From Oceanispirochaeta sp. (GTDB lineage Bacteria; Spirochaetota; Spirochaetia; DSM-2461), in contig CAXXOA010000001.1 of NCBI GenBank assembly GCA_963666275.2, positions 352,001-416,000 of the forward strand: 64,000 bases of DNA, read 5' to 3'. Under the pieces are notes generated by a model. That model ran no database searches. It saw only the letters and a list, made by a program, of their open reading frames with translations, and had not been told where the DNA came from. Made by a program: the position numbers and the translations under genes. Shown piece by piece: positions 31,489 through 49,960 of this stretch (its first letter is position 1; each line of letters starts with the position of its first letter).

Positions 31489-31599
31489 TTTATCTGGAGA
31501 TTCATGCCTCTGTCAACGGGCTTCTTTTCGAACTGGAATACCAGCGCTCTCCTATGTTTCTTAAGCCCTTAACATTACAGAAAAATCCTCCCCGTCCCG

Positions 31600-32985: not shown

Positions 32986-33170
32986 GGAAGATCCTTTTTG
33001 TTTATGTCTATCTGTTTTTAATCAGAAGTGAGTATTGAAGAATACGCTCTATTTGTAAACCCCTGTTTGGAGATCTTTATTTTCCGGCGAGACTGATTGC
33101 TTTTAATTTTTGAAGAGAGAGATGATTTTTTTCAGTTAGGTTTTCTATGAAAAGAAAGAATGAAAACTGT

Positions 33171-33200
33171 AAACAACACCCCTCTCCCTCTGGGAGAGGG
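33171..33200. repeat. REP-like hairpin, copy 1
   Basis: AAACAACACC followed by CCCTCTCCC-TCT-GGGAGAGGG perfect 9-bp stem (33180-33200). Confidence 0.65.
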
Positions 33201-33318
33201 AGGAGTCTCCTGTAAAACAGAAACATCCCCCTTCCCTGAACCGAAAAATCTTCACCAAGTTGACAGAGCAATAGGGATGTGCTTGTATACTAATAATCCA
33301 TAAAAAAGGAATTCTCAC

Positions 33319-33594
33319 ATGAAAAACTTCAAGCATTACCTTTTTCTCTGCTTTATTACCCTGGTTACAGAAGGCTATTTACTTCATGAAGCTTTTTACG
33401 CCCACCGGGCCCGGGAAAAGGATGCCTTTGCCATTATTATTCCTGCGATTTTTATTGTCTGGATTATTTTCGGTTACTTTTCCCGGAAATACTTCCGGAT
33501 TCCCTGGAAGATCTTCATCCCTCTGTTTGCGATCGGGGCGGGGATTTTGATCTGGATTCGGCTGGCTTTTCTACAGCCCGGCTGGATCATCTAA
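33319..33594 (+). CDS. Small 3-TM membrane protein resembling the ankyrin anchor module
   Basis: 91 aa; three hydrophobic segments with an EKDA loop and a basic second loop; AAGGA RBS. Confidence 0.7.
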   Translation: MKNFKHYLFLCFITLVTEGYLLHEAFYAHRAREKDAFAIIIPAIFIVWIIFGYFSRKYFRIPWKIFIPLFAIGAGILIWIRLAFLQPGWII

Positions 33595-33631
33595 TCTCTT
33601 TTTATACATCATTATCTCAGGAGAACCATTT

Positions 33632-35497
33632 ATGACCCATGAAAAAGCAAACCCGAAGAGTCATCCCCGAAACCTTGCTCTGGCCTGGCTCGCCCATATC
33701 GGAGTCAATGCGTATTCCTTTGTCAGGTGCCTGGAATACTTAAGGGAAGGGAATGAGCAGGTTTTACATATACAGCTCCTGGGAATCTGGCTTTTCGGTG
33801 TGATTGGAGCTTTTACAATAAAGATAGGTCATAATTTCCGGGCCCGACTCATATTTTTTCTTTTTTCCTTCCTGGCGCCCATGATCTTCGGGGGAATGTT
33901 TGTGGTTGAATCAATACAGGCATCCCTGGAACCGCAAGCCCAGCTGAGACGGGTGATAGAAGAGGGAAAAAATGAGCAGCTTGAAGATCTTCTCCATAAG
34001 GGAATAATGAAACAAAACGAGATTCAGTACTCTTTGCTTACAGCTATCAGGTGTGATAATACCGATGCCCTGGCGCTGCTGGCAGGGCAGGGAGCTGATG
34101 TGAATCTTGCTGTGGGTGGGGTTAATCTTCCCCTGAACCGAGCCGTTGAAGAGAATGTGCCCCGGGTGGTTCAGACCCTGCTGGATCTGGGAGCGGATAT
34201 AAACGGCTCGGATATCCATGGGCAGACTCCACTCCATACGGCCGTGAAAGAAAGAAAACGATCTCTGCTCGGGCAGTTGCTGGAAGCCGGCGCCGACCCC
34301 AATGCTTTTGACAACAGAGGATATCCCCCGGCAAATTATACAGACGAAGAAGAGATCCTGAAGATTCTGGCCGATGCGGGGGGCCGGAGGGTGGAGATGA
34401 TTGATCCCCGGGAAGGGATAACCAGTCTTCATGCCGCCGTGAAGGCCGATGACAGGGACCTGGTAAAAGAGATCCTGACAGAGGGGTTTCCTCCGGTGGA
34501 TGTGGTGGATGCGCAGGATCGAACTCCTCTTATGTATGCGGCCCGGGAGGGGCTGACCGATATGGTACGAATCCTTCTGGACGGGGGAGCAGACGTCAAT
34601 GCTGAAACCCCGCAGGGGAGCAGTGCCCTTTTTGCCGCTGCCTATTCGGGATCCGCCAATGTATGCCGCCTCCTTCTTGACCGGGGGGCTGATCTTTCGG
34701 TTTTTACAGAAGGCTATTCTCCTCTGAATATTGCCGTTGAAAACGGGCATTCCTCCCTTTTTACGCTTTTTCTGGAACAGGGTTTTGCCATTGCGGATGA
34801 AACAATAGAACTGGCCTATGAAAATGAGAACCTGGCCTTAAGGAAGCTGGTTCTGGAGGGGGCTATTCAGAGTCAGGAGTTTGATCTTAACAGTCTTATC
34901 TTTCCGGCTCTAAAGAATGGGGATCTTACGACCCTGTTCCATCTGGCAGAGAAGGGGGTAGACTTTAATACCAGAGGATCCCATGGATTGACTGCCGCTC
35001 ATTATCTTTTTGCAGACAGTTCCTCCGATCCCCGTTTGATCCGGTTTATCCTGGAACAACAGACAGATCTTACAGTTCAGGACTATCAATCCTATACTCC
35101 TCTGGATTATGCTGTTATGAATGATAATCTGTCCGGTTTTAATACACTCTGGTCATTTATCGGGGAAGAGATCTCCCCGGAACAGCTGAATCTCACTTTT
35201 CTCCATTCCGTGGAATTCGCTTCTCCCGCAACTATGGCACGCCTCCTGACTCTGGGGGCGGATATCCATTTTGTGGAAACCGGTTCTACAGATCCAGTTC
35301 TGTTTCATCTGCCCGATTATTTTGATGGGATAGAAGTGGCTGTGGAAAGAGAAAAAGCTCTTGATGATCTGGAGCAGTGTATAGCCATCCTGGTTCAGGC
35401 CGGTGCCGATCCTGATGAGTCGATTGACAACTGGACCCTTGAGGATCAGTACGGAGAGGATAGTTCCGTTATGAATATTATAAGGTCATACAGATAA
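33632..35497 (+). CDS. 3-TM-anchored ankyrin repeat protein
   Basis: Three TM helices; GQTPLHTAV, RTPLMYAAREG, SALFAAAYSG and YTPLDYAV; AGGAG RBS. Confidence 0.92.
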   Translation: MTHEKANPKSHPRNLALAWLAHIGVNAYSFVRCLEYLREGNEQVLHIQLLGIWLFGVIGAFTIKIGHNFRARLIFFLFSFLAPMIFGGMFVVESIQASLEPQAQLRRVIEEGKNEQLEDLLHKGIMKQNEIQYSLLTAIRCDNTDALALLAGQGADVNLAVGGVNLPLNRAVEENVPRVVQTLLDLGADINGSDIHGQTPLHTAVKERKRSLLGQLLEAGADPNAFDNRGYPPANYTDEEEILKILADAGGRRVEMIDPREGITSLHAAVKADDRDLVKEILTEGFPPVDVVDAQDRTPLMYAAREGLTDMVRILLDGGADVNAETPQGSSALFAAAYSGSANVCRLLLDRGADLSVFTEGYSPLNIAVENGHSSLFTLFLEQGFAIADETIELAYENENLALRKLVLEGAIQSQEFDLNSLIFPALKNGDLTTLFHLAEKGVDFNTRGSHGLTAAHYLFADSSSDPRLIRFILEQQTDLTVQDYQSYTPLDYAVMNDNLSGFNTLWSFIGEEISPEQLNLTFLHSVEFASPATMARLLTLGADIHFVETGSTDPVLFHLPDYFDGIEVAVEREKALDDLEQCIAILVQAGADPDESIDNWTLEDQYGEDSSVMNIIRSYR

Positions 35498-35505
35498 AGA
35501 TTATG

Positions 35506-35554
35506 AAACAACAAACCTCTCCCTCCTTCGACTCCGCTCAGGAACCGGAGAGGG
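35506..35554. repeat. REP-like hairpin, copy 2, with an extra element in the loop
   Basis: First 20 nt match copy 1 at 18/20; loop holds CTTCGACTCCGCTCAGGAACC before GGAGAGGG. Confidence 0.6.
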
Positions 35555-35578
35555 GCTAAAAACCTGAAACCCTTTCTC

Positions 35579-36208
35579 TTATGGGGTTAATTCTACTGCA
35601 AAATCATCGGGTGCCATGAAAAGCAGGATAATGGGAATCTCTATGACCATGGAGGAACCATAGATGTTTACGAGGATCTGGTCTGTTTCCTCCATGCCGG
35701 AAGAATCAGAATCGACTTTCACTCCCGCCTTTTTCATGTCTTTCAGGTCGCCGCTGAGATCAATGAGCAGCGTGTATTTTGCTCCCGACATAAAGGCCAA
35801 AGCCGTTTCATCGGTTTCTTCCTCATCACTGAGAGAGGGGATGACGATCTCATAGCCTTTTTCTGTTTTCACAGGCAGAAAGTAGGTCGTTTCAAGCCCG
35901 GAAGTGATATCACTGACTTTTCCGGAGACTTTGATTTCCGCCCCGATATGGTAGGGCGTATTCACAGGGCTTACGCTCGCATACAGCTCGTTGTATTCCC
36001 CGAAGATTTCGTCTCCGATCTCATCAAATTCGGAGTAGTCCATCTCCTCTCCGGAAAAAGAGCCGATCATGTCCATCATCGCTTTCTGCATTGTGTAGCG
36101 AACTGTTACATCCGCTTTGCCCTTATGGAGAGAGACTGTATGGAAAATATCAAGGCAGCTTGTCAGTAACAGGGTGAATGCACAGAGTGCTATTAGTTTG
36201 AATTTCAT
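35579..36208 (-). CDS. Lipoprotein of unknown function
   Basis: MKFK...LLLTSC lipobox; AAGGA RBS. Confidence 0.8.
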   Translation of the reverse strand: MKFKLIALCAFTLLLTSCLDIFHTVSLHKGKADVTVRYTMQKAMMDMIGSFSGEEMDYSEFDEIGDEIFGEYNELYASVSPVNTPYHIGAEIKVSGKVSDITSGLETTYFLPVKTEKGYEIVIPSLSDEEETDETALAFMSGAKYTLLIDLSGDLKDMKKAGVKVDSDSSGMEETDQILVNIYGSSMVIEIPIILLFMAPDDFAVELTP

Positions 36209-36384
36209 TTTGTTTCCTTAATAGGGAGAGATCGTTATACCCTATTATACAGAGTTCTCCCTGTTTCTGTCAGTTCATAAAACTTATCTATGAAATTAAC
36301 GTTCTCTTGTCAGGCTGAGTAAACAGGTATCTGCCGGAAAGGGGTTTTACACGGTTAATTGAGGAGTTTCGGTTCTGAGAATTG

Positions 36385-37062
36385 TCAAAGTGTGGAGATT
36401 CTCCTTTTCATTCTCCTGTAAGGAGATGAAATTCCTTCCTTTTTCCAGGACAGATACCCTCTGACAGCCAGAATCAGAAGGATTACATAGAGGAGAGAAA
36501 GGAATTTCACCTCTTTAATCCAGTAAAGGCCGATGGCAATCACATCCACCACAATCCATATGAGCCAGCTTTCAGTCCGTTTGCGGGCCAGCAGATACAT
36601 GGCGGCAAAACTGGCCACTGTGGTGAACGCATCCAGGTAAGGAAAGTCGGCGGCCAGAGGGAAGAGGGCCGGAAGAAAAAGGTGGATCCGGGCCATGAGA
36701 AAACCGCCGGTCCCCGACAGGAGAGCTATGGCCCCCAGCCAGAGCAGGTTATTCAGGCGGGTACCTCTTCTGACAGCGATCTCTCTGGTGTCTCTTCGCT
36801 CCCGACTCCAGTACCACCAGCCGTAGGTGCTGGCTCCCAGGTAGTAGATCTGTTCCAGGCAGTCCGAATAGAGCTGGATCTGATAAAAGAGCATACCGTA
36901 GAGGATCACCGAGGCTATTCCCACGGGCCAGTTGAGCATTCTTTTCTGCGAAATGAGCCACACCGACCAAAGGTAAAGAATCGTACCCACGAATTCGATA
37001 TAGCTCATGGGGTACCCCAAAAAGGTGAAAAATATACTGTCTATGGAAAAGAAATTTACCAT
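36385..37062 (-). CDS. pnuC: PnuC family nicotinamide riboside transporter
   Basis: NWPVG, YGWWYW, PYLDAFTT and ESWLIWIVVD motifs; overlaps nadR by 7 bp. Confidence 0.9.
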   Translation of the reverse strand: MVNFFSIDSIFFTFLGYPMSYIEFVGTILYLWSVWLISQKRMLNWPVGIASVILYGMLFYQIQLYSDCLEQIYYLGASTYGWWYWSRERRDTREIAVRRGTRLNNLLWLGAIALLSGTGGFLMARIHLFLPALFPLAADFPYLDAFTTVASFAAMYLLARKRTESWLIWIVVDVIAIGLYWIKEVKFLSLLYVILLILAVRGYLSWKKEGISSPYRRMKRRISTL

Positions 37063-38051
37063 GTGCGATTCTCCTTGTAATGATTCAGTTCCCGGGCAAC
37101 CCGGTCCATCCTTTCGTTCAGACTGCCTTCCAGAAGGACATAGGGGATTTCTCTCCTATCCAGATCCCGGCGAAACCTCCTTTGGAACAGGCTCCTATGG
37201 ACTTCTCCGGAACGGTCCTCCGTATCGTCATAGGGAATATCGTCGCCGCAGAGAAAATGAAGGTCGTATCGGTCCCGGCAGTCATCGGCCAGAAGCTCCA
37301 GTTCCTTTACAGCCGATCCATGATAATCCAGAGCGAAATGATAGGTAGACAGGGCTCCCGTGTCAACAAAGAAGTAATCCCCCCCTATATAGGCCTTTTC
37401 TACTTCCTTTTTCCGGTGAATCAGAGCTAATTCCAGGAGCTGTTCACCGGTCAGACGACGATTCCTCTGGTGCTTTTCCCAATATTCCCGGCCGTACTCG
37501 GCCATCCAGGGGCAGGCATATTTTTCTGCCAGGGCTCGGGCCAGGGTCGTTTTGCCCGTGCCGGGGGCTCCGTGAAATACGGCTTTGATTATATGGTCAA
37601 AGTAGACCGGCGGGGGTAAGAATTCCCGAAATGCCGGGGGATTTTCCCGTATCATGGTTCCCGAAACAGGGATGTGGATTCTCCGGGGATCAACTTGGCG
37701 GTTTCGGCACTTAAGGGCGCGGCTCATGTGTTCCCCGTAGGGTTCGGAGGAGTAGAAACTGTGAATAGGAGTACCCTTGAGAACTTTAAGAACGTACTCT
37801 TCCTGACATTTCATTATCTCCGGTGAGTAGCCCGTCTCCTCCGGTCCGTCCGGGGCCGTAATTGGCTCAACCCGATGGGGGAAGCACTCCCTAATCCAGG
37901 CCGCCCTTTTATTAAGCGGTATGGATGTAAGACGGCTTTGGTAGATAATCACCTTAACCAGGTCCATCTCTCTAAGGGCCGTTTCGATGACATGGGCATG
38001 GCCCCGATGGAAGGGAGCGTATTTACCCAGGCATAATCCGATTTTTCTCAT
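37056..38051 (-). CDS. nadR: NadR-type NMN adenylyltransferase / ribosylnicotinamide kinase without HTH
   Basis: GKYAPFHRGH (HxGH), SSEPYG, VSGTMIR, Walker A GAPGTGKTT and EYGREYWE. Confidence 0.88.
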   Translation of the reverse strand: MRKIGLCLGKYAPFHRGHAHVIETALREMDLVKVIIYQSRLTSIPLNKRAAWIRECFPHRVEPITAPDGPEETGYSPEIMKCQEEYVLKVLKGTPIHSFYSSEPYGEHMSRALKCRNRQVDPRRIHIPVSGTMIRENPPAFREFLPPPVYFDHIIKAVFHGAPGTGKTTLARALAEKYACPWMAEYGREYWEKHQRNRRLTGEQLLELALIHRKKEVEKAYIGGDYFFVDTGALSTYHFALDYHGSAVKELELLADDCRDRYDLHFLCGDDIPYDDTEDRSGEVHRSLFQRRFRRDLDRREIPYVLLEGSLNERMDRVARELNHYKENRTW

Positions 38052-39403
38052 AGACTGTCGGGGACCTCCGTTTGGAAGGTTATGATTTTCCTATCCTCAT
38101 CCAGGCCGATGTTATCGCCCATCTTAAGGGGGAGGTTTTCGGCTCCGTACCTCTTGAGTACATTCGTGAGAGAGGTGAGAACTTCCTCTTCCTTTCCCGT
38201 GTTTACGGGCAGACCTACTTCCAGTGAGTAATCAGCCCTCTGCACTATTTTATAGGCCGGGAGGGCCAGGGGCGCCAGGGCGCGGGAAAAATCCACCGTA
38301 TTGATCCACCTCCCTTGGGGCAGGGAAAAACGTACCGGCTTTCGGCCCTGGAAATCTATCAGATATAACCTGTCTTCTTCTCTTTCAAACCGGCAGAAAT
38401 CACCCGTTCGGTAGCGGATAAGGGGTAGGTAGGGATTATTGCCCCCGCTCAGGGCCAGCTCTCCCCACTCTCCGTCGGGAAGGGAGCGGTCCTCTTCAGG
38501 ATCGAGGACCTCCAGATAAAGGTCGGGGCGCATGGATTGGGTCATCCCTTTTCTTGTCCAGGCGATGTTACGGCACTCGGTCATGGAATAGACGTCAAAC
38601 AGGGGGCACTGAAAGTGGGCTTCCAGCCTATCGGCCAGTCCGGAAGAGAGGGCCATCGCACTGGAGATCATGGCGTGGGGTCTCAGGGGGATTCCCCTTT
38701 CCATCAGGGCGGCGAAGGCCAGGGGATCCCCGGTCAGCAGGGAGGGATTGAGCTCTGTCAGATACTCCCTGCAGTCATGCGGATCTCTCCACTGGCCGGG
38801 ATGGAGGTTGATCTTTATAAAACCGGCCCCGTCCAGATAGGACGAGACAGAGGCGTATGTCAGTGTTTCCAGCTGGCTGCAGATCAGGGCTATGGCTGTT
38901 GTGCCCGGACCTCTTGCCAGGCTAATCCCTTCGGTTGAGAGCATTTTTTCTACCTGCGGCAGCCAGGAGGAGGCTTCTTCCGGTCCGAAGATCACATCCA
39001 GCGGGGCTCCCGTTGTTCCCGAGGTGGCGTAGCAGAGGATATCATCGAGGGGGGCACTGTCTCTCACAAAGTTCCAAGGCGCCCTTCGCAGGTCCTCCCG
39101 GGTAAAGGAGGGGGCTCGGGAGAAATCCGCCGGATAATCCCGGTAAGCGGGAACGTCGGAAAGGACATCTTGGTAGAACCCTTCTATGAAGTCTTCCGTA
39201 GCAAAATCCCCCCTACCGTCCATATAGTTTCTGTAGGCATTCAGGTTTTCAAGATGTTTCCCGGTCAGCCGGTCTCCGGACTTGAAATTGTACAGGGGAG
39301 AGTTGGGATGCTGGCGCAGAGCGTTAAGCCAGTTTAGATTTTCAGCGGCGGGGAACCGTTCCTCATCGGTGAGAACCGGCATAATCTCTTTACTCTCTGC
39401 CAT
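38048..39403 (-). CDS. CapK / phenylacetate-CoA ligase-like adenylate-forming enzyme
   Basis: TSGTTG P-loop, YSMTE, PLIRYRTGD and GR motifs. Confidence 0.85.
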   Translation of the reverse strand: MAESKEIMPVLTDEERFPAAENLNWLNALRQHPNSPLYNFKSGDRLTGKHLENLNAYRNYMDGRGDFATEDFIEGFYQDVLSDVPAYRDYPADFSRAPSFTREDLRRAPWNFVRDSAPLDDILCYATSGTTGAPLDVIFGPEEASSWLPQVEKMLSTEGISLARGPGTTAIALICSQLETLTYASVSSYLDGAGFIKINLHPGQWRDPHDCREYLTELNPSLLTGDPLAFAALMERGIPLRPHAMISSAMALSSGLADRLEAHFQCPLFDVYSMTECRNIAWTRKGMTQSMRPDLYLEVLDPEEDRSLPDGEWGELALSGGNNPYLPLIRYRTGDFCRFEREEDRLYLIDFQGRKPVRFSLPQGRWINTVDFSRALAPLALPAYKIVQRADYSLEVGLPVNTGKEEEVLTSLTNVLKRYGAENLPLKMGDNIGLDEDRKIITFQTEVPDSL

Positions 39404-39974
39404 AGGTATTAGCCGCTTCCCGGGCTCTCTTTTCCCGCATCTTCCTTTTTATTTCCTCCGCCCGGCTGTGGGCCTGGCGGCTCTGTTCTTCCAGTTCGGC
39501 GCGATAGAGAGTATCCAGGGCCTTCAGCCTGTCTTCCCCTTCACTGGGCGTTTCTCCCCGGGGGAATAGACCGCACCAGTGAAGGGCCAGGCGGCACAGC
39601 TCTTCCCTGCGGGCCGGGTTTCCGATCATCTGGGGAGGAGAGACAAGGCGGACTAACCTGTTCATATGATCGTACCCCCGGGAAAACCCCGGGCCCAGTA
39701 CTTCTTTTCCGTGAAACCAGGGGTGGGAGTAGAGATAGGCCAGAACCTGCAGCCCCTGCCAGTGCCCGATCTCCCAGTTTTCCCAGCGTTCTTCCAGCCG
39801 GGATGCCAGTTCCCCGGGTATTTTCACTTCCTGGAAAATAAAGAGATCCTTCACAATCGCCAGGCTGTGAACCTTGGACCGGGAGTGGGAAGGAAAGGGG
39901 AGAGGGGATTCCAGAAACAGAGACGGGCACTCGCTGAGGTAATTCAGCAGCTCTTCAAGGGGCGGGCTGTTCAT
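39390..39974 (-). CDS. Hypothetical helical protein of the MoxR-vWA operon
   Basis: ATGA overlap with vWA gene, GGAGG RBS; RREELCRL motif and charged coiled-coil C-terminus. Confidence 0.8.
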   Translation of the reverse strand: MNSPPLEELLNYLSECPSLFLESPLPFPSHSRSKVHSLAIVKDLFIFQEVKIPGELASRLEERWENWEIGHWQGLQVLAYLYSHPWFHGKEVLGPGFSRGYDHMNRLVRLVSPPQMIGNPARREELCRLALHWCGLFPRGETPSEGEDRLKALDTLYRAELEEQSRQAHSRAEEIKRKMREKRAREAANTYGRE

Positions 39975-41698
39975 CCTTTTCCTCCAAATTTCCCGGCGGC
40001 AAATTTTTTCGCGAACCGGGAAAGCTCTTCGTCATTGGACACATAGTGAATCGTCCATCCCTCTTTTCGCAAAATATCCGCCTCCTTTTTATGATACTCC
40101 GGCCGGGAATAGAGGACCAGTGACCCGCCGCCTCCGCAATTCTCCAAAGCCTTCCTGGCTACATCCCAGGTTTTCTCTCCCTCTCCATTCCAACCTCCTC
40201 CCAGCATGGCAAAAATATCATCATCGGTAAGGAGAAGGATATGGGTCTTGCTTTTGCGGAGGCGGGAGAAGTCCGTTCGCAGCCGGGGGATGCCAAAGGC
40301 GTATCCGGTCCCGAGATAGGATACAAGGACATCCATTATTTTACGGGGATCCCGTACAAAGCCCTCCGTTTCCATGAAAGAGCCCGGTTCACCCGAAAGG
40401 GTTACTTTCACACGGGCTCCCCCACGCAGGGCGGATTGGGCGATGATGGTCCCCGCCAATACAGGCCAGCTGAAATTAATGGCCGGATTACCCATAGAAC
40501 CGGAACAGTCTATTCCTATGTAAAGATCCAGGGGGGTGTCGGCCAGGGTATCCCCTTCATCAGGGGCAAAGACACGCTTTACCGTGGTCATCCCGGGAAT
40601 AATTTCGGGGCTTCTTATGAGGGAACCGAACCAGTCTATTTCCCCCGGATTATCTCCCAGGTCCCACGACTCGAGCCCTTCGGGAATGACCCCTTCGGTC
40701 TGGGGAACCTTCTCTTTGGGGAAGGGTATGAGATAGGGGGCGGATATTTGCTTATAGTACCGGGCCAGAGCTTTGTTTATATCCAATCCCGCCGGGTCTA
40801 GCTGCCGTAAATAGTCCAGATAGTCCCGGGGAGATTTGTATCTCTGCCGGGGCCCTTCCCCTCTGGGGGACCTGTCGGGAATCCTATCGGCCGAATTTAT
40901 CCCGTCCCGATCCCTCAGGGGCTCATCGTCAATGTCTTCCGGGGGGGCTTCCAAGTCTGCCCCGACTCCGGAACAGCCTTCGGAAGCTTTCAAGGCATCC
41001 ATTATGAGAGTCCAGGTTTCGGCTTTACCCTCCTCCTCCCACAGATAGGGGTAAAATAGAATTGCATAGGAGTAGGCCCCTTCCAGCCAATCCCCCGAGT
41101 AGGAGCGTATAATATGAGCCCCCATTTCGCTATCCCTTTCCATCTGTTCCCCCCTGTCTTTACTGGGGCGGACTTGGGTCAGCTCCCCGGGCTGGAGGGA
41201 GTAGAGCTTCTCGTAAATGCCCAGATAAAGGTTCCAGACGGGGGAGGAATTAGCTCTTTTATCCCTTTTCTGAATCTTTTTGTAGATATCATCCATGCGA
41301 AGGCCCCGGCGGCTCTGGAGATGGTAGTTTATCAGATGATCGGCAAAGAGATTCATAATTCGGGGGGCATGCTCCTCCTTTTCGGTCAAGGCTTTTCTGA
41401 CCAGGGTGAGCATGCGCCCGTTATCGGTGAGATTGGCCGGCACATAAACGTGGTGGCCAATCTCATGGGCCAGTATCTCCAGGGCATAGTCGTCCAGGCC
41501 GTACTGCTTTATGAGCGAGCCATCCAGGACAATGCGGTGATCCTTGAGCCTGATCATGGCAAAGCTGCCCTCCAGTCCCTGTTCCTTCGCTTCCTCCCGG
41601 GAAAAGCACCAGTGGGGAGGACGCATCATTACCAAGTGGCTCCACTGCCCCAGGGCTTCTTCCCATCGGTCGTCCCACATGCTGCGCATTTCATCCAT
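39971..41698 (-). CDS. HExxH metallopeptidase-like domain fused to vWA domain
   Basis: LAHEIGHH plus NLFADHLIN (DUF2201_N-like); MIDAS IDCSGSMG, GTG and LLTDDD; TGATG coupling at 41698 (ORF open to 41719). Confidence 0.85.
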   Translation of the reverse strand: MDEMRSMWDDRWEEALGQWSHLVMMRPPHWCFSREEAKEQGLEGSFAMIRLKDHRIVLDGSLIKQYGLDDYALEILAHEIGHHVYVPANLTDNGRMLTLVRKALTEKEEHAPRIMNLFADHLINYHLQSRRGLRMDDIYKKIQKRDKRANSSPVWNLYLGIYEKLYSLQPGELTQVRPSKDRGEQMERDSEMGAHIIRSYSGDWLEGAYSYAILFYPYLWEEEGKAETWTLIMDALKASEGCSGVGADLEAPPEDIDDEPLRDRDGINSADRIPDRSPRGEGPRQRYKSPRDYLDYLRQLDPAGLDINKALARYYKQISAPYLIPFPKEKVPQTEGVIPEGLESWDLGDNPGEIDWFGSLIRSPEIIPGMTTVKRVFAPDEGDTLADTPLDLYIGIDCSGSMGNPAINFSWPVLAGTIIAQSALRGGARVKVTLSGEPGSFMETEGFVRDPRKIMDVLVSYLGTGYAFGIPRLRTDFSRLRKSKTHILLLTDDDIFAMLGGGWNGEGEKTWDVARKALENCGGGGSLVLYSRPEYHKKEADILRKEGWTIHYVSNDEELSRFAKKFAAGKFGGKG

Positions 41699-42603
41699 CA
41701 GTGTATCACTTCTACCCACAGGTAATGGCTATCCTCCTTCAAATGGATTTTAAGTTTTCCCTTTTCCTTCCCCCCGGGAAGGCTAAAGATTTTTTCCTCA
41801 TGGAAGGGATAGGGTACAAGCCGGCAGCCGAAGGAGTCGGCAAAGAGCAGAAAAGCCCTCTTCTGATCATGGAGAATGAGCCCGGTGGAACCATGAGTGT
41901 CTGTCCCTTTCAGGTTGCGGCAGTGGGGAGGTAGGAGAAATGGCCCGCCGTATCCGGCAAATCCGCCCAGCCGCCCCCCCGTATAGTCCCCCGGGATAGC
42001 CCAGGGATTCTCCCGGGCCGATTCCAATTGGCTGCGGCTATAGGGAAAAAGGGACGCCAACTGCCTATCCGAAAGCAGCTCACATCCATCCAGAGCTGGT
42101 ATGCGCAATTCGGCCATTCCCAAGGTCCAGGCGGCCAAACGGCCCAGGGCAAAGACCTCTTCCTTTCGTTCGCATACCTTAAGGAGGGCTGCCATTTTAT
42201 CGAGCCAGTCCCGCCGGGTCCGGGCATCGGGGAGAGAACGAATCCCGTTGTCCCAGGACGTAAGAAAGGGGCGTAATTCACCGGAAGTGAGGGCTCCCTT
42301 CCGGTTGATAAAAGGAACCAGGAGCAGCCAGCCTTTAAGATAATCCCCATTAAGCCTCATCTCTCCGCCCCGCACCAGAGAGGAGAGGGTCGTTTCAATT
42401 CCGTGGATCATCAGGTTGAGCAGATGGTCCGATTCTCCGAAGGCAGCATAGAGAGCGGTGAACAGAGGTGTCAGGTGTTTACCCAAATCGGCATCGGCCA
42501 AACGGGGATGGGAGAAAAGCAGCCCGTCCAGAACCGGCTGGATGTTCTCCTCTTCCCGGGCTAGAAAAGAGGCCAGACCCCTTTCTATTTCCACTGGAGC
42601 CAC
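41698..42603 (-). CDS. Hypothetical protein of the MoxR-vWA operon
   Basis: 301-aa ORF overlapping both neighbours; LAAWTLGMAELR, NPW and GGFAGYGGPF motifs. Confidence 0.8.
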   Translation of the reverse strand: MAPVEIERGLASFLAREEENIQPVLDGLLFSHPRLADADLGKHLTPLFTALYAAFGESDHLLNLMIHGIETTLSSLVRGGEMRLNGDYLKGWLLLVPFINRKGALTSGELRPFLTSWDNGIRSLPDARTRRDWLDKMAALLKVCERKEEVFALGRLAAWTLGMAELRIPALDGCELLSDRQLASLFPYSRSQLESARENPWAIPGDYTGGRLGGFAGYGGPFLLPPHCRNLKGTDTHGSTGLILHDQKRAFLLFADSFGCRLVPYPFHEEKIFSLPGGKEKGKLKIHLKEDSHYLWVEVIH

Positions 42604-44162
42604 CTCTTGTAGTTTGTATAGCGCTGGTGGAAGTACTTCAATTTGAGAATATCGTCGGCCATATGCCCGTACAGTTTCCCGCTTCGGCTCATTTCGCTGA
42701 GGATCTGCTCAATCTGGAACATTCTCTTCTCCACCTCCGAGATGGAGAGACCCTCCATCCCTTTCTCAAAGAGTTCCTCCATCCTGGCCACCGGGTCGTA
42801 TTCGTCCAGTTTCAGCCGGGCATACTCCTGGCAGGAGAGGTCGAAGCATTTTCGTATCCAGGTTATCCGGTCAACCCGGTATGGGGCGTTCTCCTCCTTC
42901 TCGAAGAAGGGCGATTCCAAATAGGGAGTAAGGGAGTCGTGCAGAACAAAGGGCAGAATCTGCCGGACATCTTCCAGTTCCACCTCATCCAGCCCTCTGA
43001 AGTAGGCCATGGCCTTGGCATAGAGCAGAAGGGTCATGAGCTTTCTTACGGAGAGGCCGTTTTTGGCCTGGCTTCCCAGATCACGGTTCATATCCTTGCC
43101 GCTTTCGAGTTCCATCAGTGATTGAAAGTCCAGGCCGGAAAGCTTGGCCGTGTCCTTTGTCATATAGTCCAGCTTCGTCGATGCCGGTTCGAAAAACTCA
43201 AACTGCCGGGCGAAAAATTCGATTTTACGGCGGAGCGGGGCGGGAATGGCAACGGCAAGGATCTCCTTATACAGGGTGTCCAGCTCCTCATCGGTAAAGA
43301 TTATCTCCCGGGGAATGTTCTTTTCCGGCTTGTACCCCGTTTCTATTCTCCTTTGGAGATCCTCTACGAAGCGGGTATTGAAGTGGAGAGCCTTTATAAC
43401 CACATCGATTCTGTCTTTGAGCGCCTCAATAACCTGATAGGTTCCGCCCCCGGCGTCATCGTTGGCGGTCAGGTACCAGGCTGCTTCGGGGCATTCGTAG
43501 ATCTGATCCATAATTTCCGCATAGTTATCCGCCAGAACTGTGAGCAGGGCCGATTGGGTTCTGGTGGGGATCCGGTTGTACTCATCAATGATCTTAACCC
43601 TCATTTCCAGCCATTTCCGCCAGGAGATCCGGATTTTGGTGGGATCTTCCGACTTCATGAGATCACCGGGGAAGGGGTGTCCCAGCAGGTCGGCTACAGT
43701 CATTTGGGGCTGACCATGCTGAATGGCTCGTTTCATATCTTTTAAATCGTAACCGGCCAGGAGTCCCATGAGAATGGACGTGGCTGTTTTTCCCCGGCCC
43801 GGACCGCCGACAATCAGACAGCGTTTGCGCACCGCCAGGGTCAAAAGGGGGATCAGGACAAAACTGGAGTAGCACTGGCCGGTGGGAAGATCAACCTGAA
43901 CCTTGGAGTCCCCGAAAAAGTAGGACTGGGGAGCCTTGTCGTTATACTCAATATCGTAGAAAGGGCTGATAATAGCCGTATTGGTAATCCAGAAATAGGC
44001 CTGGCGCAGTTTTTCATCCAGTCCCGGGGAGTCTTCAGATACGGAACTCTCAGGGGTGGGATCAAAGAGGTCCCTGATCCTGAAAGGGGATTTTTTTCCT
44101 CCCTTTTCTCCTGGATTGGTCGGTGCCGCCGGTATATGATAAGATGGGTTTTCCGGTTTCAT
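42585..44162 (-). CDS. MoxR-family AAA+ ATPase
   Basis: Walker A GGPGRGKT, Walker B IIDEYNR, QSALL, TAN, EALKDR and SVR; CAGGAG RBS. Confidence 0.9.
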   Translation of the reverse strand: MKPENPSYHIPAAPTNPGEKGGKKSPFRIRDLFDPTPESSVSEDSPGLDEKLRQAYFWITNTAIISPFYDIEYNDKAPQSYFFGDSKVQVDLPTGQCYSSFVLIPLLTLAVRKRCLIVGGPGRGKTATSILMGLLAGYDLKDMKRAIQHGQPQMTVADLLGHPFPGDLMKSEDPTKIRISWRKWLEMRVKIIDEYNRIPTRTQSALLTVLADNYAEIMDQIYECPEAAWYLTANDDAGGGTYQVIEALKDRIDVVIKALHFNTRFVEDLQRRIETGYKPEKNIPREIIFTDEELDTLYKEILAVAIPAPLRRKIEFFARQFEFFEPASTKLDYMTKDTAKLSGLDFQSLMELESGKDMNRDLGSQAKNGLSVRKLMTLLLYAKAMAYFRGLDEVELEDVRQILPFVLHDSLTPYLESPFFEKEENAPYRVDRITWIRKCFDLSCQEYARLKLDEYDPVARMEELFEKGMEGLSISEVEKRMFQIEQILSEMSRSGKLYGHMADDILKLKYFHQRYTNYKRWLQWK

Positions 44163-44190
44163 GTTTCACTCCTGCCCTCAAATTGGGCAT

Positions 44191-44218
44191 ACTATAAATT
44201 AAATCTGATTATTTTCAA
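44191..44218 (-). promoter_or_regulatory. Candidate sigma70 promoter of the MoxR operon
   Basis: Minus strand TTGAAA-N16-TATAGT in an AT-rich leader. Confidence 0.5.
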
Positions 44219-44335
44219 ATATAGCTCATTAATAGCAGTGGATTTTTCTTCCAGTAGGGAATCGGATACTTGTTTATGTAAAATATTATAGAGGGTCAGA
44301 ATATATTGAGGAAATACCTTCTGCTCAAAGATATT

Positions 44336-44444
44336 GGGTCCAGACCCTTCCCTATAAAATCTTCAGTCAGAGCGATCAGGTTTAACTGCGCTGTTTCATC
44401 CAGGACTTCATGCAAGGCTCTCTCCACGATAAGATGGAGCAGGG
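44336..44444 (-). pseudogene. Relic of an ankyrin gene C-terminus
   Basis: LLHLIVERALHEVLDETAQLNLIALTEDFIGKGLDP aligns with LLHLIVDRAYREVLDEPAQKNMAALANTFIRKGLDP of 31600-32985. Confidence 0.8.
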
Positions 44445-44497
44445 ACAGGGGTGAGGGTAAAAAAAAATTAGCTCTAAAACTTTCCAAATCAATTATG

Positions 44498-44557
44498 TTT
44501 TTATGGGTATAACCATAAAAAGTATTCTATATAACTTGGAAATTATGATTATAACCA
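44498..44557. promoter_or_regulatory. Orphan operator-like repeat pair
   Basis: TTTTTATGG-N6-CCATAAAAA palindrome; TTATGnnTATAACCA occurs at 44501 and 44543. Confidence 0.45.
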
Positions 44558-44761
44558 GAAAAGACACACCCTCATTTCTATTCAGGAGAGCCCAACAGGG
44601 AGGGAATCCTTGGGAATAGAGTAGTCTTGTTAGACGATTTCCGGGGCTTTTCCATCTCAGAAACGAGCCTAATAATGTTCATCATCTGGGAGGATTGATA
44701 TCGTCCGGTTTATTAAATTTTACTGGGAGAACGGGAATTGTGAATCATCTTACAAATAGAA

Positions 44762-45079
44762 CTAGAATCCAGTAACCAAGAGATCAATAGCAGCAGTAAT
44801 TTGCAGTCTGAGATCTTTCAGATTACCGACTTTCGATCCAATCAGAGAAACAGGAACAGCAGCCATTTCAGACAGGAATATGATGAATTTTCTGTTTTGG
44901 ATAATGCAGGGAATATGGATACGGGTCAGCATTTGATCTGAATATTCATCAGCCACTCTTAATGGTGCTACAAGTCGTGTTGCCAGAATATCCATAGCGT
45001 CCGATTGCAGATTAATCAGATAGGGTACTTCTCCGGAACTTTTAGGATTTTTGTTCTTATAGATATCAAACTGAGGCAA
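44762..45079 (-). CDS. ccdB: CcdB family toxin
   Basis: MPQFDIYKN, PYLINLQSD, TRLVAPL and AIDLLVTGF; TTG start abutting the ccdA stop. Confidence 0.88.
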   Translation of the reverse strand: MPQFDIYKNKNPKSSGEVPYLINLQSDAMDILATRLVAPLRVADEYSDQMLTRIHIPCIIQNRKFIIFLSEMAAVPVSLIGSKVGNLKDLRLQITAAIDLLVTGF

Positions 45080-45298
45080 TTAAAAGGTCCTCAAATCATC
45101 ACTGAATACACCAGTAGTATCAATGTGTTTGTTGTAGCTTTTAATACTGTCTTTGTTTTCTGCTACCCAGGATTCTTCAGCAGCCTTTTTTAATTCTTCC
45201 CTGAGAGCTTTTTCCAGAACTGAGGAAATAACAATTTTCTTTTTTCTGGCAGCATCCAGAAGGTCTTTATCAATACTAACGTTGGTTCTGGCTTTCAT
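45080..45298 (-). CDS. ccdA: CcdA family antitoxin
   Basis: KARTNVSIDKDLLDAAR RHH region, WVAENKDSIKSYN and GVFSDDLRTF. Confidence 0.88.
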   Translation of the reverse strand: MKARTNVSIDKDLLDAARKKKIVISSVLEKALREELKKAAEESWVAENKDSIKSYNKHIDTTGVFSDDLRTF

Positions 45299-45304
45299 GT
45301 GCAT

Positions 45305-45327
45305 ATTGTAACACATGGATCATGTGT
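45305..45327 (-). promoter_or_regulatory. ccdAB extended -10 promoter and operator
   Basis: Minus strand TGT-TACAAT ends 6 nt before ATG 45298; ACACATG-GAT-CATGTGT palindrome at 45311-45327. Confidence 0.6.
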
Positions 45328-45375
45328 AATGAAGTGTTTGGTAATAAATAGAAGAATTTTCCTACCTGTATGGAT

Positions 45376-46289
45376 TTAATTATTTTTGTCGATTTCTGCG
45401 TTGATCATAGCTTCAACAGGGCTGTCAGGTTCCGTATACTCCAGGACTGTCTTTCCGTCAGAATCAACAGCCAGGGGATCGGCCCCTGCCTGAAGGAGCA
45501 GTTCAACCACTTCTATATGATCGTTAGCTAACATCAAAGGGGGTTTACCTAAATTACTTCTTAGATCAGGAATGAATCCTTCCTTGAGTATCTGTTTGAC
45601 CCTTTCAAGATCTCCTTCCAACGCAGCTTTATGTAATTCTGACTCACCCCATCTATCGAGGATTATCCTTCTAAATCCCAGAGATTTTAATTCTTCCGCC
45701 AAATCAGGATCTGCATATCTGGCAGGAGGATATCCCTGGTTATCAGTGGCATTGCCGTCGGCGTCAAATTCCAGCAGCAGATCAATTATCTCTCTGCTCA
45801 TGTCGCTTCCGTTCTCATTCAAGGCATAGTGAAGAGCTGTCCATCCGTGGAAATCGCGAATATTCGGATCAACCCCCTTTTCCAGGAACAGTCTCAGATC
45901 CCCGGGCTCTGCTCCCGGGCCGCTTCATGTATGACTGTTTCTCCCTTGTAGTTGGGAAGGGAAAGAGCCGCACCTTCTTTCAGCAGGTACTCGGCTATCT
46001 GAACCGAATCATTTTCTATTGTACTGAAAAAGATGGGACTTCCGGGATCGTTTACTTCCGCTCCGGCATCAATAAGGAGTTTTACTATGGAAAGGTTTTC
46101 AACCCTGCAGGCAAAGTTAAGCAGATTATATTCGTAATCGTTAAGATCTACTCCCTGCTGAAGAAATAGCACAAGAGATTCCTGATTACCTTGACCTATG
46201 GCTCTCTGCAATAGCCATTTCCAGGAGTCAGATGATAACTCCTTTGTTTCCAGGATCTTTTCTATGGTATCGATTTCTCCTTTATCCAT
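45376..46289 (-). pseudogene. Frameshifted, 5'-truncated ankyrin repeat gene
   Basis: ETVIHEAAREQSPGI* continues in another frame as LRLFLEKGVDPNIRDFHGWTALHYAL; frameshift near 45895; no TM anchor or signal peptide. Confidence 0.8.
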
Positions 46290-46350
46290 GGCTCGCGCTA
46301 TCCGGTTGGTAGGATGGCCTTTACTTTGAGTGTTTCTGTCTCCGCATAAA

Positions 46351-46668
46351 TCAATACCAGCCCAGATAAAAGGCTATCTGGTTTTCAGGGGTCATATACT
46401 TGGGGCCGCCCCGTTCCACACTGGCGTAGCCGCCGAAGATCCAGCCGTCGATTTCACTATTAAACCGGATTTTGATCCAGTGATCTTTCCGGCCATCTAT
46501 GACTTCGGTCTCTTCAGTCAGAGCAAGGGGTTCAAAGTTCATCTGAGGAGAGGCTTTTTTCGGGGAGCGGATCTGGTTAATGACAGAAGAGCCTGCATAA
46601 ACAGGGGAGTTGTTCGGTAGAGGAAGGATATAAATTGAAAAGCTTAACAGAAAGACAAGTCGTTTCAT
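46351..46668 (-). pseudogene. Short or degraded SH3-domain secreted protein
   Basis: Signal-like MKRLVFLLSF, then only the second half of an SH3b domain (EVIDGRKDHWIKIRF...GWIFGGY). Confidence 0.5.
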
Positions 46669-46826
46669 GGTATAGTCCCTGGATGAATGAGTGTTGACAG
46701 TACTATCATGAACATGTTCAATTTGAAAACTGTCATTTAATATTGGAGCCGGTAGCATTGCAAAAGAATATCAGTTTTGTCAGGACGATTCCCAGTTTGA
46801 AGAAATTTTATTTCAGGACGGTCCTA

Positions 46827-49800
46827 ATGCATTCACCACGATTTTTCAGAGTTCCTTTTCTTTCATTTTTCCTTTTCACATCTTTCCTGACTTTCCAATC
46901 CTGTTCCAGAGAGTTGGAAACTATAGAACCAGTCTCCCGGAGTGTAGCCTCTCTACCGGAAAACAGTGAAGTCATCTGCGCCGGTACCTGGCGGTCCGAT
47001 GAGGGCGAGGAAACTATTGCCGCACTGCTCAGGGAAAAAGGGACGGAGAAACTTTTCCTTTTCCCCAGCGGCAGGGAGGTCAATATAAGTGACTTTCAGG
47101 AAGCTGTTTTCGGGACTTCTCCGGGAGAGTTCCTCTGTTGGGGATACGGGGAAGACCAGACAATGGTTATTCAGAACTATGAGGGTGTAATAGAATCTAT
47201 TCCTCTGGATTACTACCAGGAAAGGGTTATTCTCTGCTCCAACGGGAAGGATTATGCCTATCTGGACTGGGCAAAAAATAACTTTTTCCTCTATAAAAAC
47301 GGAAAGCGAATTTATTCCAGTACGGTATATCCTCATGTCCTGTTTGACAGAAAGGGGCGCCTCTATTTCAGCTGTCATACAGATCATATTCCCCAGTCGG
47401 GAGAAAAACGGAATTTCAACGATCTGGTGTTGATGAATGAAGACAGGCAGATCCTGGTGCCGGCGGGTATCTACTCTACAGGTCAGGATAATCTGAAAGT
47501 CCGGTTCGACCCTTCCAACCGGCTGTTCATCGAATCTGTATTTACAATTGACTACGAAGAGTCTCTTGTTCTTCTCAGGCGGGCCGACTCCCACTATCCT
47601 GATGAGGTCGATGTCATGGCAGACCGGGAAGCTTACGGAGAATATCTGAAAAAGCACAGCCTCTTCTGTATCGATACGAAAACCGATGGTTCACCTGCCG
47701 AAGAAATCCAGCAGGAGTGTGTTATCTATAAACAGGGAGAAGAGTATGCCCGGGAACAGATTATTACGGAATATGATTTCAGTCCCCGGGGAGACTCCCT
47801 TACCTATGGGGCCTTTAATCTGAAGGAACCCGGTTTCTTTGACAAGTTCAGTAACACCAGCTATCGGGCGGCTGATGGCACCTACGGTCTGGATTACCAT
47901 CTGGACTTCACCATAAAAAGGGACGCGAAGACTCTTTTCCAGGCGGAACTGGTCAAAATCCGCTCTCTGGCCCGCATCCTTGGTTTGCCTGCGGATAGGG
48001 CAATCTTGGAAGCAACGAAGCCGGTTTTTTCCCGGGGCGAACTACAGGAGGACGGTCTTGTCTCCTCTCTCGAATTTGCCGGTGACAGCCGGGTGCTTAT
48101 GAATATCAATATGCCTGTCTCCGACTGGGATGATTACAAAAAAACAGAATTTGTCAGGGTCAGTCATAAATCCTTCTATTTTAAAACAAGTCATCAACTT
48201 TCCTTTAACAATACCCATATAGAGTCCCATTTTCAGATCAACCGGGATCCTATTGAGGGAATCAAGGGCTACCGGCTCCTGGACAGGGAAGAGGAGCTTC
48301 CTCCGGGAACCTTTATTCTCATCGGCCAGGATGAACGGGAGTACCCGATTATAGGGGGAAAAGTCAGCGCAACATCCTTTGATCGTATTCTGGGAGCCTC
48401 TTCCAATGGAAACGGCATGGTGGAGTTTACAGCCCTTGAGGGGAAAGAGCTCCGGTCTCTGACTTTTCATTCTCCCCTGAAAGAGACCCGGGAAGAAAGG
48501 AAAGAAGCTGCTCCCGATATAGAGGGTCTGACGATTAATGAGCGGGCAATGGATGATCAGGGGATTTATCTGGCTACAGATCAGGGAATGTTTATCTCCT
48601 TTGACGGGGGGAAGTCCTGGGAGCAGCATAACAGGAACACCGTTCTTCCTTCCCTGGATCAGGATAATATTTCAACTCTAATACTGAGCTCTGATGAAGG
48701 GTATCTTCTCTCTCAGGGTATCCTGTGGAAAAGGGTATCCAACGGCCGCTGGGAGCCTCTGAGTTTTCCCTTTGAGTCTCATGATATGATCAGTGATGGA
48801 ACGTCCCTCTATCTGAGCAGCCTGGGGGAAAATTTCATAGCCCCCCTTACAAATCCTCAGAATTATGTAACCACCTATTATTACAACAATGAAAAAGCCT
48901 CCCTCTTCGAGGGAGATCCTGTAACGGCGGATCTGGCGGATGCCCGTTTCTACAAAAATACAAAATGGGTCCTGGACAGAAAAAGCCAGGTCTATTATCA
49001 GGATGATAATATCTGGACGGGACTGGGATTTCACAGGAGTGGAGATGAACGGCAGGAGAATATTTTCAGTTTCGCCTTCGGAGAGGACTCCATTTTCCTC
49101 GGTACCTGGAAAGGCTTGTTCCGCTCCCGTAACGGAGGAACTTCCTGGGTGGGATATGATGTTTCCCGGGGGGTAAGCGGGAACTTTATACGGGAAATTG
49201 CTCTTCAGGATAACAGGGTTTTCGCTCTGACCGGAACCACCGTGGTCATTATGGAAGACGGGATACAATATTTCAAATTTGTTGGAGACGACTATGGTTA
49301 CCGCTGGTCTTTCCAGGGGGAAAATGCCGTATCCTATGAGCTGGGCGAAGAGCTTCCGGACTATGAAGTGCATGGAAACCGGGCCTACCGGGAAAAGGAC
49401 AACTACTGCGGTATCTCCTACTCCTACGACGGGGGAACCACCTGGGAGAATATTCATCTGGAAGAGATCGCCGAAAGAAAGGATAACTCCTATTGGGGGG
49501 CCCATATTGTCAGCGATGAAAACTGGCTCTACTTGAGTATCGGATCGGAAATCTATAAGACCGGACTGGATGAGATGAATTGGCAGAGAATGGACAGCCC
49601 CGGTGATGAGTCTGTCCGGGAGATGAAAATCATGGAAGGAAAGCTCTATATAAGAACCGAATCGAAGGACACCAGCCGGTATTTCTTTTTTCAGGACGGC
49701 TGGCAGCCCTTTGAACCGGAGAGTATCAGGAGTTTCCCTTTTATGGACTGCCAGTCAGTTGAGTCTGACGGGGAGTATATCTACGCCTATCCTCAGGAGG

Positions 49801-49888: not shown

Positions 49889-49917
49889 TTGCTGTTCTTT
49901 AAATAGTCGTTTATGCT
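49889..49917 (+). promoter_or_regulatory. Duplicated sigma70-like promoter, copy 1
   Basis: TTGCTG-N17-TATGCT. Confidence 0.6.
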
Positions 49918-49960
49918 GTGGCTTCTCTATAATTCAACCCGCCTTTACCGGAGTGTACAC

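Follow-up and report, generated by a model that had tools for sequence, protein, structure and literature searches.

The locus described here lies in a 64,000-nt stretch of an Oceanispirochaeta sp. genome (GenBank assembly GCA_963666275.2, contig CAXXOA010000001.1, positions 352,001 to 416,000 of the forward strand), hereafter the window, and consists of seven overlapping genes on the minus strand at window positions 36385..44162. These are, in order, a MoxR-class AAA+ ATPase of 525 aa (42585..44162), a 301-aa protein of no known family, U301 (41698..42603), a zincin-like HExxH domain fused to a vWA domain (39971..41698), a 194-aa protein of no known family, U194 (39390..39974), a PaaK-like ANL adenylating enzyme of 451 aa, hereafter the ligase (38048..39403), a NadR-like protein with NMN adenylyltransferase and ribosylnicotinamide-kinase domains (37056..38051) and a PnuC-family transporter (36385..37062). 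A preliminary description of the sequence had reported these genes at the same coordinates and in the same order, with overlaps of 19, 1, 4, 14, 4 and 7 nt, and recomputation gave identical values; the 1-nt overlap assumes that the vWA gene starts at the ATG at 41698 within TGATG (575 aa), while the in-frame GTG at 41719 gives a protein of 582 aa and an overlap of 22 nt. A sigma-70-like promoter candidate (TTGAAA-16-TATAGT, 44191..44218, minus strand) is located 29 nt before the MoxR start, in a scan of consensus matches only, which yielded 12 sites vs 8.0 +/- 3.3 in shuffled sequences. Judged by sequence conservation, the seven genes are a conserved and widespread functional unit, in which the ligase probably acts on the acidic C-terminus of U194.

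The family labels of the preliminary description hold for MoxR, the ligase, NadR and PnuC through profile matches, and for the HExxH-vWA protein through motifs. MoxR matches AAA_3 and AAA_lid_2 above cut-off as well as PDB 2r44, and the conserved motifs GGPGRGKT (Walker A), IIDE (Walker B), TAN, DR and GLSVR provide the Walker A/B, sensor and Arg finger elements. Of 300 other genomes of the phylum, 20 contain relatives that are 58-63% identical, and mean identity across the family is 63%, indicating a conserved and not a hypervariable protein. The label of the HExxH-vWA protein rests on motifs because no Pfam match above threshold, and no DUF2201 match, was obtained. In 40 aligned sequences (582-aa numbering) HEIGH and DCSGS are invariant, as are D404, S406, S408 and D499 of the MIDAS motif (an adhesion site that depends on metal ions) DxSxS-T-D, with T471 nearly so. 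Downstream of HExxH, N123 and D127 are invariant and the match to Peptidase_M48 is weak (E 0.02), while Pfam VWA matches are found in 2 of 30 members, both weak. The vWA proteins are uniform in length and architecture and contain no effector Pfam domain. U301 gave no Pfam match, no Foldseek match at E<=0.001 and no usable ESM Atlas match, its beta part being barely covered, and the best fold-search score was Z 6.9 (root-mean-square deviation (rmsd) 3.0, 76 aligned residues). Its predicted model (pLDDT 87) has a helical N-part and a beta-rich C-part, with conserved W159, G162, GGF-G-GG-F--PP and FAD-FG. Where the system splits, U301 stays beside MoxR and vWA, and it is probably an adaptor of the MoxR motor.

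The ligase matches AMP-binding (E 4.6e-11) and its closest solved relatives are PaaK ligases, with profile matches to PDB 9s3l, 4r1l, 2y27, 6siw and 6wuq at E 7e-28 to 1e-11. The TSGTTG, YSxTE and RYRTGD motifs are intact and a conserved, family-specific N-terminal extension adds 80 aa. PaaK-type enzymes drive carboxylate activation with ATP, releasing AMP and PPi (PMC4498308; this and the other papers cited below are drawn on in part of their text). A role of the ligase as a NadE substitute was rejected, as the host has NadE. Elsewhere in the host genome (G000:C2:111677-114371, minus strand), two tandem open reading frames (ORFs) are distantly PaaK/CapK-like and by score unrelated to the operon ligase family. 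NadR matches AAA_28 and CTP_transf_like, and TIGR01526 at E 4.9e-40 yet under its cut-off; HxGH and Walker A are intact and the helix-turn-helix (HTH) domain is absent. PnuC scores above the TIGR01528 cut-off and has the WxxWxxxD motif. The host also has nadD and nadE, and single queries found no pncA, pncB, NAMPT or nrtR in its genome.

Relatives of the vWA protein numbered 1768 at E<=1e-10 among 8000 candidates scored. From GTDB, 80 of 380 vWA loci were fetched, and a second scan took 80 of 155, minus 15 repeat contigs; the locus set comprises 102 loci with >=5 kb on both sides of vWA, and its rows are not independent because Flavobacterium and one spirochaete genus (g80) are heavily represented in it. 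MoxR is present in 100 of these loci, U301 in 101, U194 in 98, the ligase in 96 and the complete five-gene core in 94, with the accessory NadR in 79, PnuC in 54, either of the two in 81 and all seven genes in 51. By record titles, some of which look mislabelled among metagenome-assembled genomes (MAGs), the system spans about 15 phyla of Bacteria and is also present in four archaeal records (Helarchaeota, Sigynarchaeum, Promethearchaeota and Bathyarchaeota), and cultured hosts among the records include Flavobacterium, Pontibacter, Janthinobacterium, Massilia and Desulfosarcina. Each of the seven genes is single-copy in the host genome, and the nearest named relative, 93% identical in vWA and titled Spirochaetia, has the same seven genes between different flanking genes. 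The ligase and nadR/pnuC are commonly linked to MoxR-vWA, as the preliminary description had supposed (96/102 and 81/102 loci), and since this linkage is frequent and no described operon with the gene set was found, its grouping of the genes stands.

The last residue of U194 is acidic in 144 of 149 distinct sequences (140 Glu, 4 Asp; two truncated sequences removed), in 145 of the top 150 among 716 cluster representatives and in 27 of 28 rows from loci of the radical-SAM gene RS2 considered below, including the archaeal ones (KVTRE in L320, KPSRE in L329). A remote homologue missed by the hidden Markov model ends in GWRE. The other core proteins checked have no fixed C-terminus, the commonest last residue reaching at most 48 of 129. 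The possibility that the acidic tail is a by-product of the overlap between the U194 and ligase genes was rejected, as U194 retains this end over gene spacings of -20 to +921 nt. The predicted model of U194 (pLDDT 93) is a helical bundle with a 39-residue C-terminal helix, the sequence ending EAANTYGRE; the tail is otherwise basic (12 K/R vs 9 D/E in the last 44 residues), and E124, E125, R128 and E141 are invariant. No Pfam or NCBIfam match, no Foldseek match at E<=0.001 and no usable ESM Atlas match were found, and the best fold-search score was Z 4.9 (rmsd 4.3, 91 aligned residues). Longer fused forms of U194 or of the ligase were not found in the searches, a negative of little weight.

U194 and the ligase are also linked to each other in gene order and in sequence. 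The commonest operon split separates MoxR-U301-vWA from U194-ligase, and in five of five checked genomes with a standalone MoxR-U301-vWA set, U194 and the ligase are adjacent to each other elsewhere. Covariation was measured as mutual information with average product correction (128 loci, effective number 40-83, three weightings), limited to variable columns and to loci in which U194 ended in E, D or W and every core gene was single-copy. The last 10 residues of U194, contributing 5-6 of about 135 variable columns, account for 15, 16 and 19 of the top-20 pairs with the ligase, whereas their share is 1, 1 and 2 with vWA, 0, 1 and 2 with U301 and 3, 2 and 6 with MoxR. The top pair joins U194 position -5 to ligase 278/279, directly after YSxTE, a stretch which aligned to PaaK in the profile comparison and which we take to line the acid pocket of ANL enzymes. 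The pair amounts to a charge swap in 154 of 157 scored cases, a basic -5 accompanying Gly/Ser278 (99) and a non-basic -5 accompanying Arg278 (55), the latter being the state in the window. Because the terminal carboxylate is nearly invariant and the last residues covary with the ligase, U194 is most simply a ligase substrate, either carrier or tag, a probable role that was missed by the preliminary description, where U194 was a mere unknown. Taking both uses together, the sequence evidence makes activation of U194 by the ligase somewhat probable.

A different use of the tail would leave U194 unmodified: the ligase may adenylate a small aromatic acid such as nicotinate or NaMN, with the U194 tail as a pseudo-substrate plug or MIDAS handle that MoxR-vWA pulls off to turn the ligase on. 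The closest solved ligases use aryl acids, a plug too would covary with the pocket, MIDAS gets its sixth ligand from the target (PMC13036017), and a PncA-like domain in neighbouring fusions, devoid of catalytic Asp and Cys, is sensor-like. However, covariation between tail and vWA is almost nil (1-2 of the top 20), an inhibitor has no obvious need of the terminal acid seen in 144 of 149 sequences, NadE and NadD are already in the host and the peptidase is left without a clear role; we consider this mode of control unlikely.

The association with nadR and pnuC takes a looser form. Their positions vary (upstream, downstream, convergent, order swapped, between U194 and ligase), the NadR sequences come from at least three deep clades in a quick tree, and PnuC is nearby in just 54 of 102 loci. 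The varying orientation and order, the PnuC count, and the occurrence of NadR in 32 of 280 genomes that lack the system, 26 of these belonging to one family, would suit unrelated housekeeping genes lying by chance beside a five-gene operon. This is largely refuted, and has next to no probability left, by the linkage, which takes at least six layouts and involves NadR from at least three deep clades, by the split operon of G301, in which NadR goes with the U194-ligase half, and by co-occurrence: in a 301-genome sample of the phylum NadR is found in 21 of 21 system-bearing genomes vs 32 of 280 others (7/7 genera vs 8/119), the NadR profile being built from system-linked sequences and system genomes being identified by this MoxR. 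Fifteen loci without nearby nadR were checked genome-wide, of which 7 had a NadR match elsewhere; among the 8 without a NadR match, 7 have radical-SAM genes directly after the ligase and in 1 the contig stops at that point. The NAD link is real, but nadR/pnuC is an accessory slot.

The alternative occupant of this slot is a radical-SAM pair, RS1-RS2, and a radical SAM/SPASM-like enzyme is a recurrent neighbour in 16 loci. In a scan for the RS2 enzyme covering 80 of 88 loci, NadR was at none, and none of the 39 genomes in which RS1-RS2 follows the ligase gave a NadR match (the query was positive in other genome sets, and at most 56 candidates were scored in each). The system occurs with the pair in Asgard/Bathyarchaeota records (L320:2-10059, L329, L322 and L323). 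U194-ligase pairs are duplicated with differing accessory genes in L181 and L188, and the L181 ligase adjoining RS1 clusters in the tree with other RS1-RS2 ligases, with weak support (82). Standalone RS1-RS2 genes have adjoining NAD/ADP-ribose genes in 6 of 23 loci, only some plus-strand ORFs being scanned: pncB-pncA; pncB-pncA-nadE-nadD-nrtR; pnuC-NAMPT-Macro-nadE; nrtR-tpt1 with an ADP-ribosylglycohydrolase (ARG) gene; a NadR-type kinase; and a PncA-TCAD9 fusion. NAD-salvage or ADP-ribose clusters co-directional with a radical-SAM pair or trio are found at L307:6520-15176, L258:5155-9240, L313:3773-12919 and L281:5876-11051; clusters of this kind include small Dojkabacteria genomes, and none met an NCBIfam cut-off. 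No open-access paper was found on the combination of radical SAM, NrtR, pncB and nadE. The pair was rejected as an NMN adenylyltransferase substitute, as the L307 cluster has nadD and nrtR. A Methyltransf_24 gene follows standalone RS1-RS2 in L257 (10059-11051), L274, L281, L282 and L284, in Sorangium, Enhygromyxa and others, without the ligase. In L181 and L335 the cassette precedes genes of tailoring type (Asn-synthetase-like or PP-loop, MGT glycosyltransferase); the latter (L335:4369-15574, genome G522) is a divergent version (MoxR 45%) in which the ligase is followed, as judged from the sequence, by a radical SAM, a PP-loop-like enzyme and an MGT-like glycosyltransferase, and which looks like a biosynthetic cluster, echoing L181.

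Taken together, the chemistry of PaaK, the U194 tail and the precedents of carrier and MoxR-vWA systems favour carrier loading over the other readings, although we advance it tentatively, as somewhat short of an even chance. The ligase would bind the end of the long U194 helix and adenylate the terminal Glu/Asp carboxylate, and the acyl-AMP would then react with a small nucleophile that belongs or is related to the pyridine-nucleotide/ADP-ribose pool. PnuC and NadR may import and activate this nucleophile, which elsewhere the radical-SAM pair or other tailoring enzymes may make or modify. By analogy with other MoxR-vWA pairs, the MoxR hexamer with U301 and the vWA MIDAS would grip the loaded carrier, and the HExxH domain would free the product or recycle U194.

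The same tail, linkage and covariation data could also reflect protein tagging, in which the ligase would join the terminal Glu of U194 to target lysines, MoxR-vWA would remodel the tagged proteins, the zincin would remove the tag and the NAD genes would serve a stress state. The parts parallel Pup, PafA, Dop and Mpa (an acidic-tail modifier, an ATP ligase, a peptidase and an AAA+ motor), and protein-modifying genes recur nearby, namely TCAD9 kinase-phosphatase fusions, ARG and NADAR. Nevertheless, tagging leaves unexplained both the mutual exclusion of NadR and radical SAMs and the differing small-molecule enzymes on duplicated cassettes, and U194 is predicted to be a folded 194-aa protein whereas Pup is disordered; we consider tagging as unlikely as the plug.

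Several observations weigh against U194 as a loaded carrier with an interchangeable NAD-linked module. U194 ends in REW in 3 of 149 and 4 of 150 sequences, with one QV and one LL, and with such ends activation of the alpha-carboxylate needs trimming or side-chain use. In L120, L104 and L095, U194 remains beside vWA while the ligase is elsewhere, and two ligases accompany a single U194 in L327 and L346. The charge swap represents only 2-3 parsimony changes on the tree, with 3 exceptions, and the mutual information signal can be inflated by deep clade structure; when near-invariant columns were included, the U194-ligase maximum (z 5.1) equalled the U301-ligase control. MoxR K257 also scored z up to 6.3 with one U194 tail column, and the mirror-tree partial correlation is 0.09 for U194-ligase vs 0.53 for U194-U301. 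As to the accessory slot, most of the 39 genomes are MAGs whose completeness is unstated and the set includes related members, L181 has NadR and the radical-SAM pair on duplicated cassettes, G625 contains NadR along with the system and the pair, no accessory of either kind (nadR/pnuC or radical SAM) is nearby in 16 of 102 loci, and RS1-RS2 is also found outside the system, the ligase being present in 5 of 36 such genomes.

The recurrent neighbours, which also include Macro-TIR-like, NrtR, ARG and NADAR genes, bear on the proposal of the preliminary description that a MoxR-gated peptidase and ligase act in conflict or defence while PnuC-NadR replenish NAD+. In Planctomycetota records (L092:7903-8916, L098, L102, L103, L111, L180 and L206) a Macro-like and TIR/deoxyribosyltransferase-like gene is inserted between MoxR and U301, in 8 loci in all, or 7 with a repeated contig counted once. 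Fusions of a PncA-like domain to a TCAD9 kinase-like domain, often with a dual-specificity phosphatase, are found in L087 (13253-15097), L066 (3878-6187), L097 (4988-7339) and other loci; their PncA-like first domain is without the catalytic Asp and Cys, making the fusion a candidate nicotinamide-sensing switch. These TCAD9 genes, together with NADAR, ARG and NrtR and with ccdAB next door in the window, are compatible with a defence role, and published conflict systems are built around MoxR-vWA pairs (PMC7159879). On the other side, PADLOC (library dated 2023) returned only 20-30 residue generic P-loop matches of NadR and no system, no relative was found on viral contigs with U194 and vWA queries or on plasmids with the MoxR query, the single-copy conserved core lacks a variable sensor or effector, 13 genomes of g80 share their chromosomal neighbours, and radical SAMs can replace NadR. 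As NadR is swappable for the radical-SAM pair, a substrate-supply role fits better than NAD+ rescue, and a defence module appears distinctly improbable. The preliminary interpretation is supported as regards one conserved functional unit and less so as regards a conflict role with NAD+ replenishment, and its other suggestion, a complex making a modified metabolite, comes closer to carrier loading. One unannotated 7.7-kb 'phage' record contains a 25%-identical ANL match.

The surroundings of the operon agree with what had been described. An intact ccdA-ccdB pair (44762-45316, minus strand; Pfam CcdA and CcdB above cut-off) lies about 600 nt upstream, and is not in the flank of the 93%-identical relative L001. 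Further upstream, the gene relic is an ankyrin-repeat gene (45376-46289, minus strand) split into two ORFs by a frameshift near 45900, and several more ankyrin-like membrane proteins are encoded in the window at 30037-35497 and 49913-50779. Downstream, a lipoprotein-like ORF of no known family (35579-36208, minus strand) has a lower GC content (0.46) and its own promoter-like site, a consensus match at 36273-36244, and is outside the system. No Rfam match was found within window positions 33000-48000.

The seven-gene system is apparently undescribed. No description of the gene set was found in open-access PMC/bioRxiv literature, the search covering neither subscription papers, supplements nor de Souza and Aravind 2012, and it was not found in the parts consulted of PMC7159879, PMC7824862, PMC13036017, PMC9303977, PMC4498308 and bioRxiv 2026.09.08.750141 and 2026.10.19.760177. 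We give an even chance to the broader proposal of a third kind of protein C-terminal activation, common to bacteria and the Asgard/Bathyarchaeota records. In it, an ANL enzyme would be the E1/PafA analogue for a dedicated protein with an acidic tail and would work together with a MoxR motor and a zinc peptidase, serving either to assemble an NAD-related metabolite on a carrier or for protein tagging; the radical-SAM pair would be an unrecognised pyridine-nucleotide branch. If the ligase does activate a protein C-terminal acid, ubiquitin-like E1s, PafA, LysX and PEARLs would be joined by a new chemistry of conjugation or carriers, its reach extending over many bacterial phyla and archaeal records. 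The system would also provide a MoxR-vWA motor with a defined candidate client, something that most pairs of this type do not have, and it indicates an uncharacterised radical-SAM pair as an NAD-linked module able to replace NadR-PnuC.

Several known systems share parts of this organisation. NorQ-NorD and CbbQ-CbbO likewise have a clade-7 AAA+ protein adjoining a MIDAS vWA partner, such MoxR-vWA pairs gripping targets via MIDAS and remodelling them (PMC13036017), and group 2.2 jumbo phages have MoxR with a metallopeptidase-vWA fusion, without the other genes (PMC7824862). The present system differs from all three in its distinct 525-aa MoxR family, in having no cNOR or Rubisco client and no viral copies found, and in that U301, U194 and the ligase are obligate. 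The third gene between MoxR and vWA and the occasional TIR/Macro-like and TCAD9 neighbours are features shared with ternary conflict systems (Kaur et al. 2020, PMC7159879) and the Esr pathway (bioRxiv 10.64898/2026.09.08.750141); in contrast to the ternary systems (VMAP, iSTAND, FtsH, beta-propeller), there is no variable sensor and no vWA-fused C-terminal effector here. The main text of PMC7159879 contained none of the terms nadr, adenylat, hexxh, tcad9 and isochorismatase. Both NadR domains and the transporter motif are intact, as in PnuC-NadR salvage, but NadR here is without the HTH repressor domain, falls below the TIGR01526 cut-off and is tied to a five-gene core. The ligase shares the ANL core motifs with PaaK and NatL2/AjiA1; it differs from PaaK in scoring 42.3 bits vs the TIGR02155 cut-off of 646.3, in having SSAM in place of GAEP and in the extra N-terminal 80 aa, and no paa genes were among the scanned neighbours.

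Closer parallels are found among carrier and tagging systems. There is precedent for carriers that end in an acid, are served by tailoring enzymes and have their product released by a peptidase: the amino-group carrier protein (AmCP)/LysW and pearlin systems resemble this one in an acidic residue at the C-terminus, an ATP-dependent ligase, a varied set of tailoring enzymes, radical SAMs among them, and a peptidase for product release (PMC9303977). A carrier ending in Glu is thus common to both, whereas a LysW-family carrier with a LysX ligase is absent here. Unlike AmCPs, which bind via negative charge, U194 is helical, 194 aa long and basic in its tail, and an AAA+-vWA motor belongs to the core; moreover, the ligase is a PaaK-like ANL enzyme, neither an ATP-grasp LysX nor a PEARL. 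Pupylation unites within a single locus a modifier ending in Glu, an ATP ligase, a peptidase and an AAA+ ATPase. Kinship to its components was found neither in sequence nor in fold, and no Pup, PafA/Dop, proteasome or Mpa family member is among the window proteins or the scanned neighbours; the ligase is an ANL and not a glutamine-synthetase-fold enzyme and the modifier is folded. By the features that define their members, the system stands outside ternary conflict, AmCP, pupylation and PaaK systems, while its putative mode of working is that of a carrier or tagging system.

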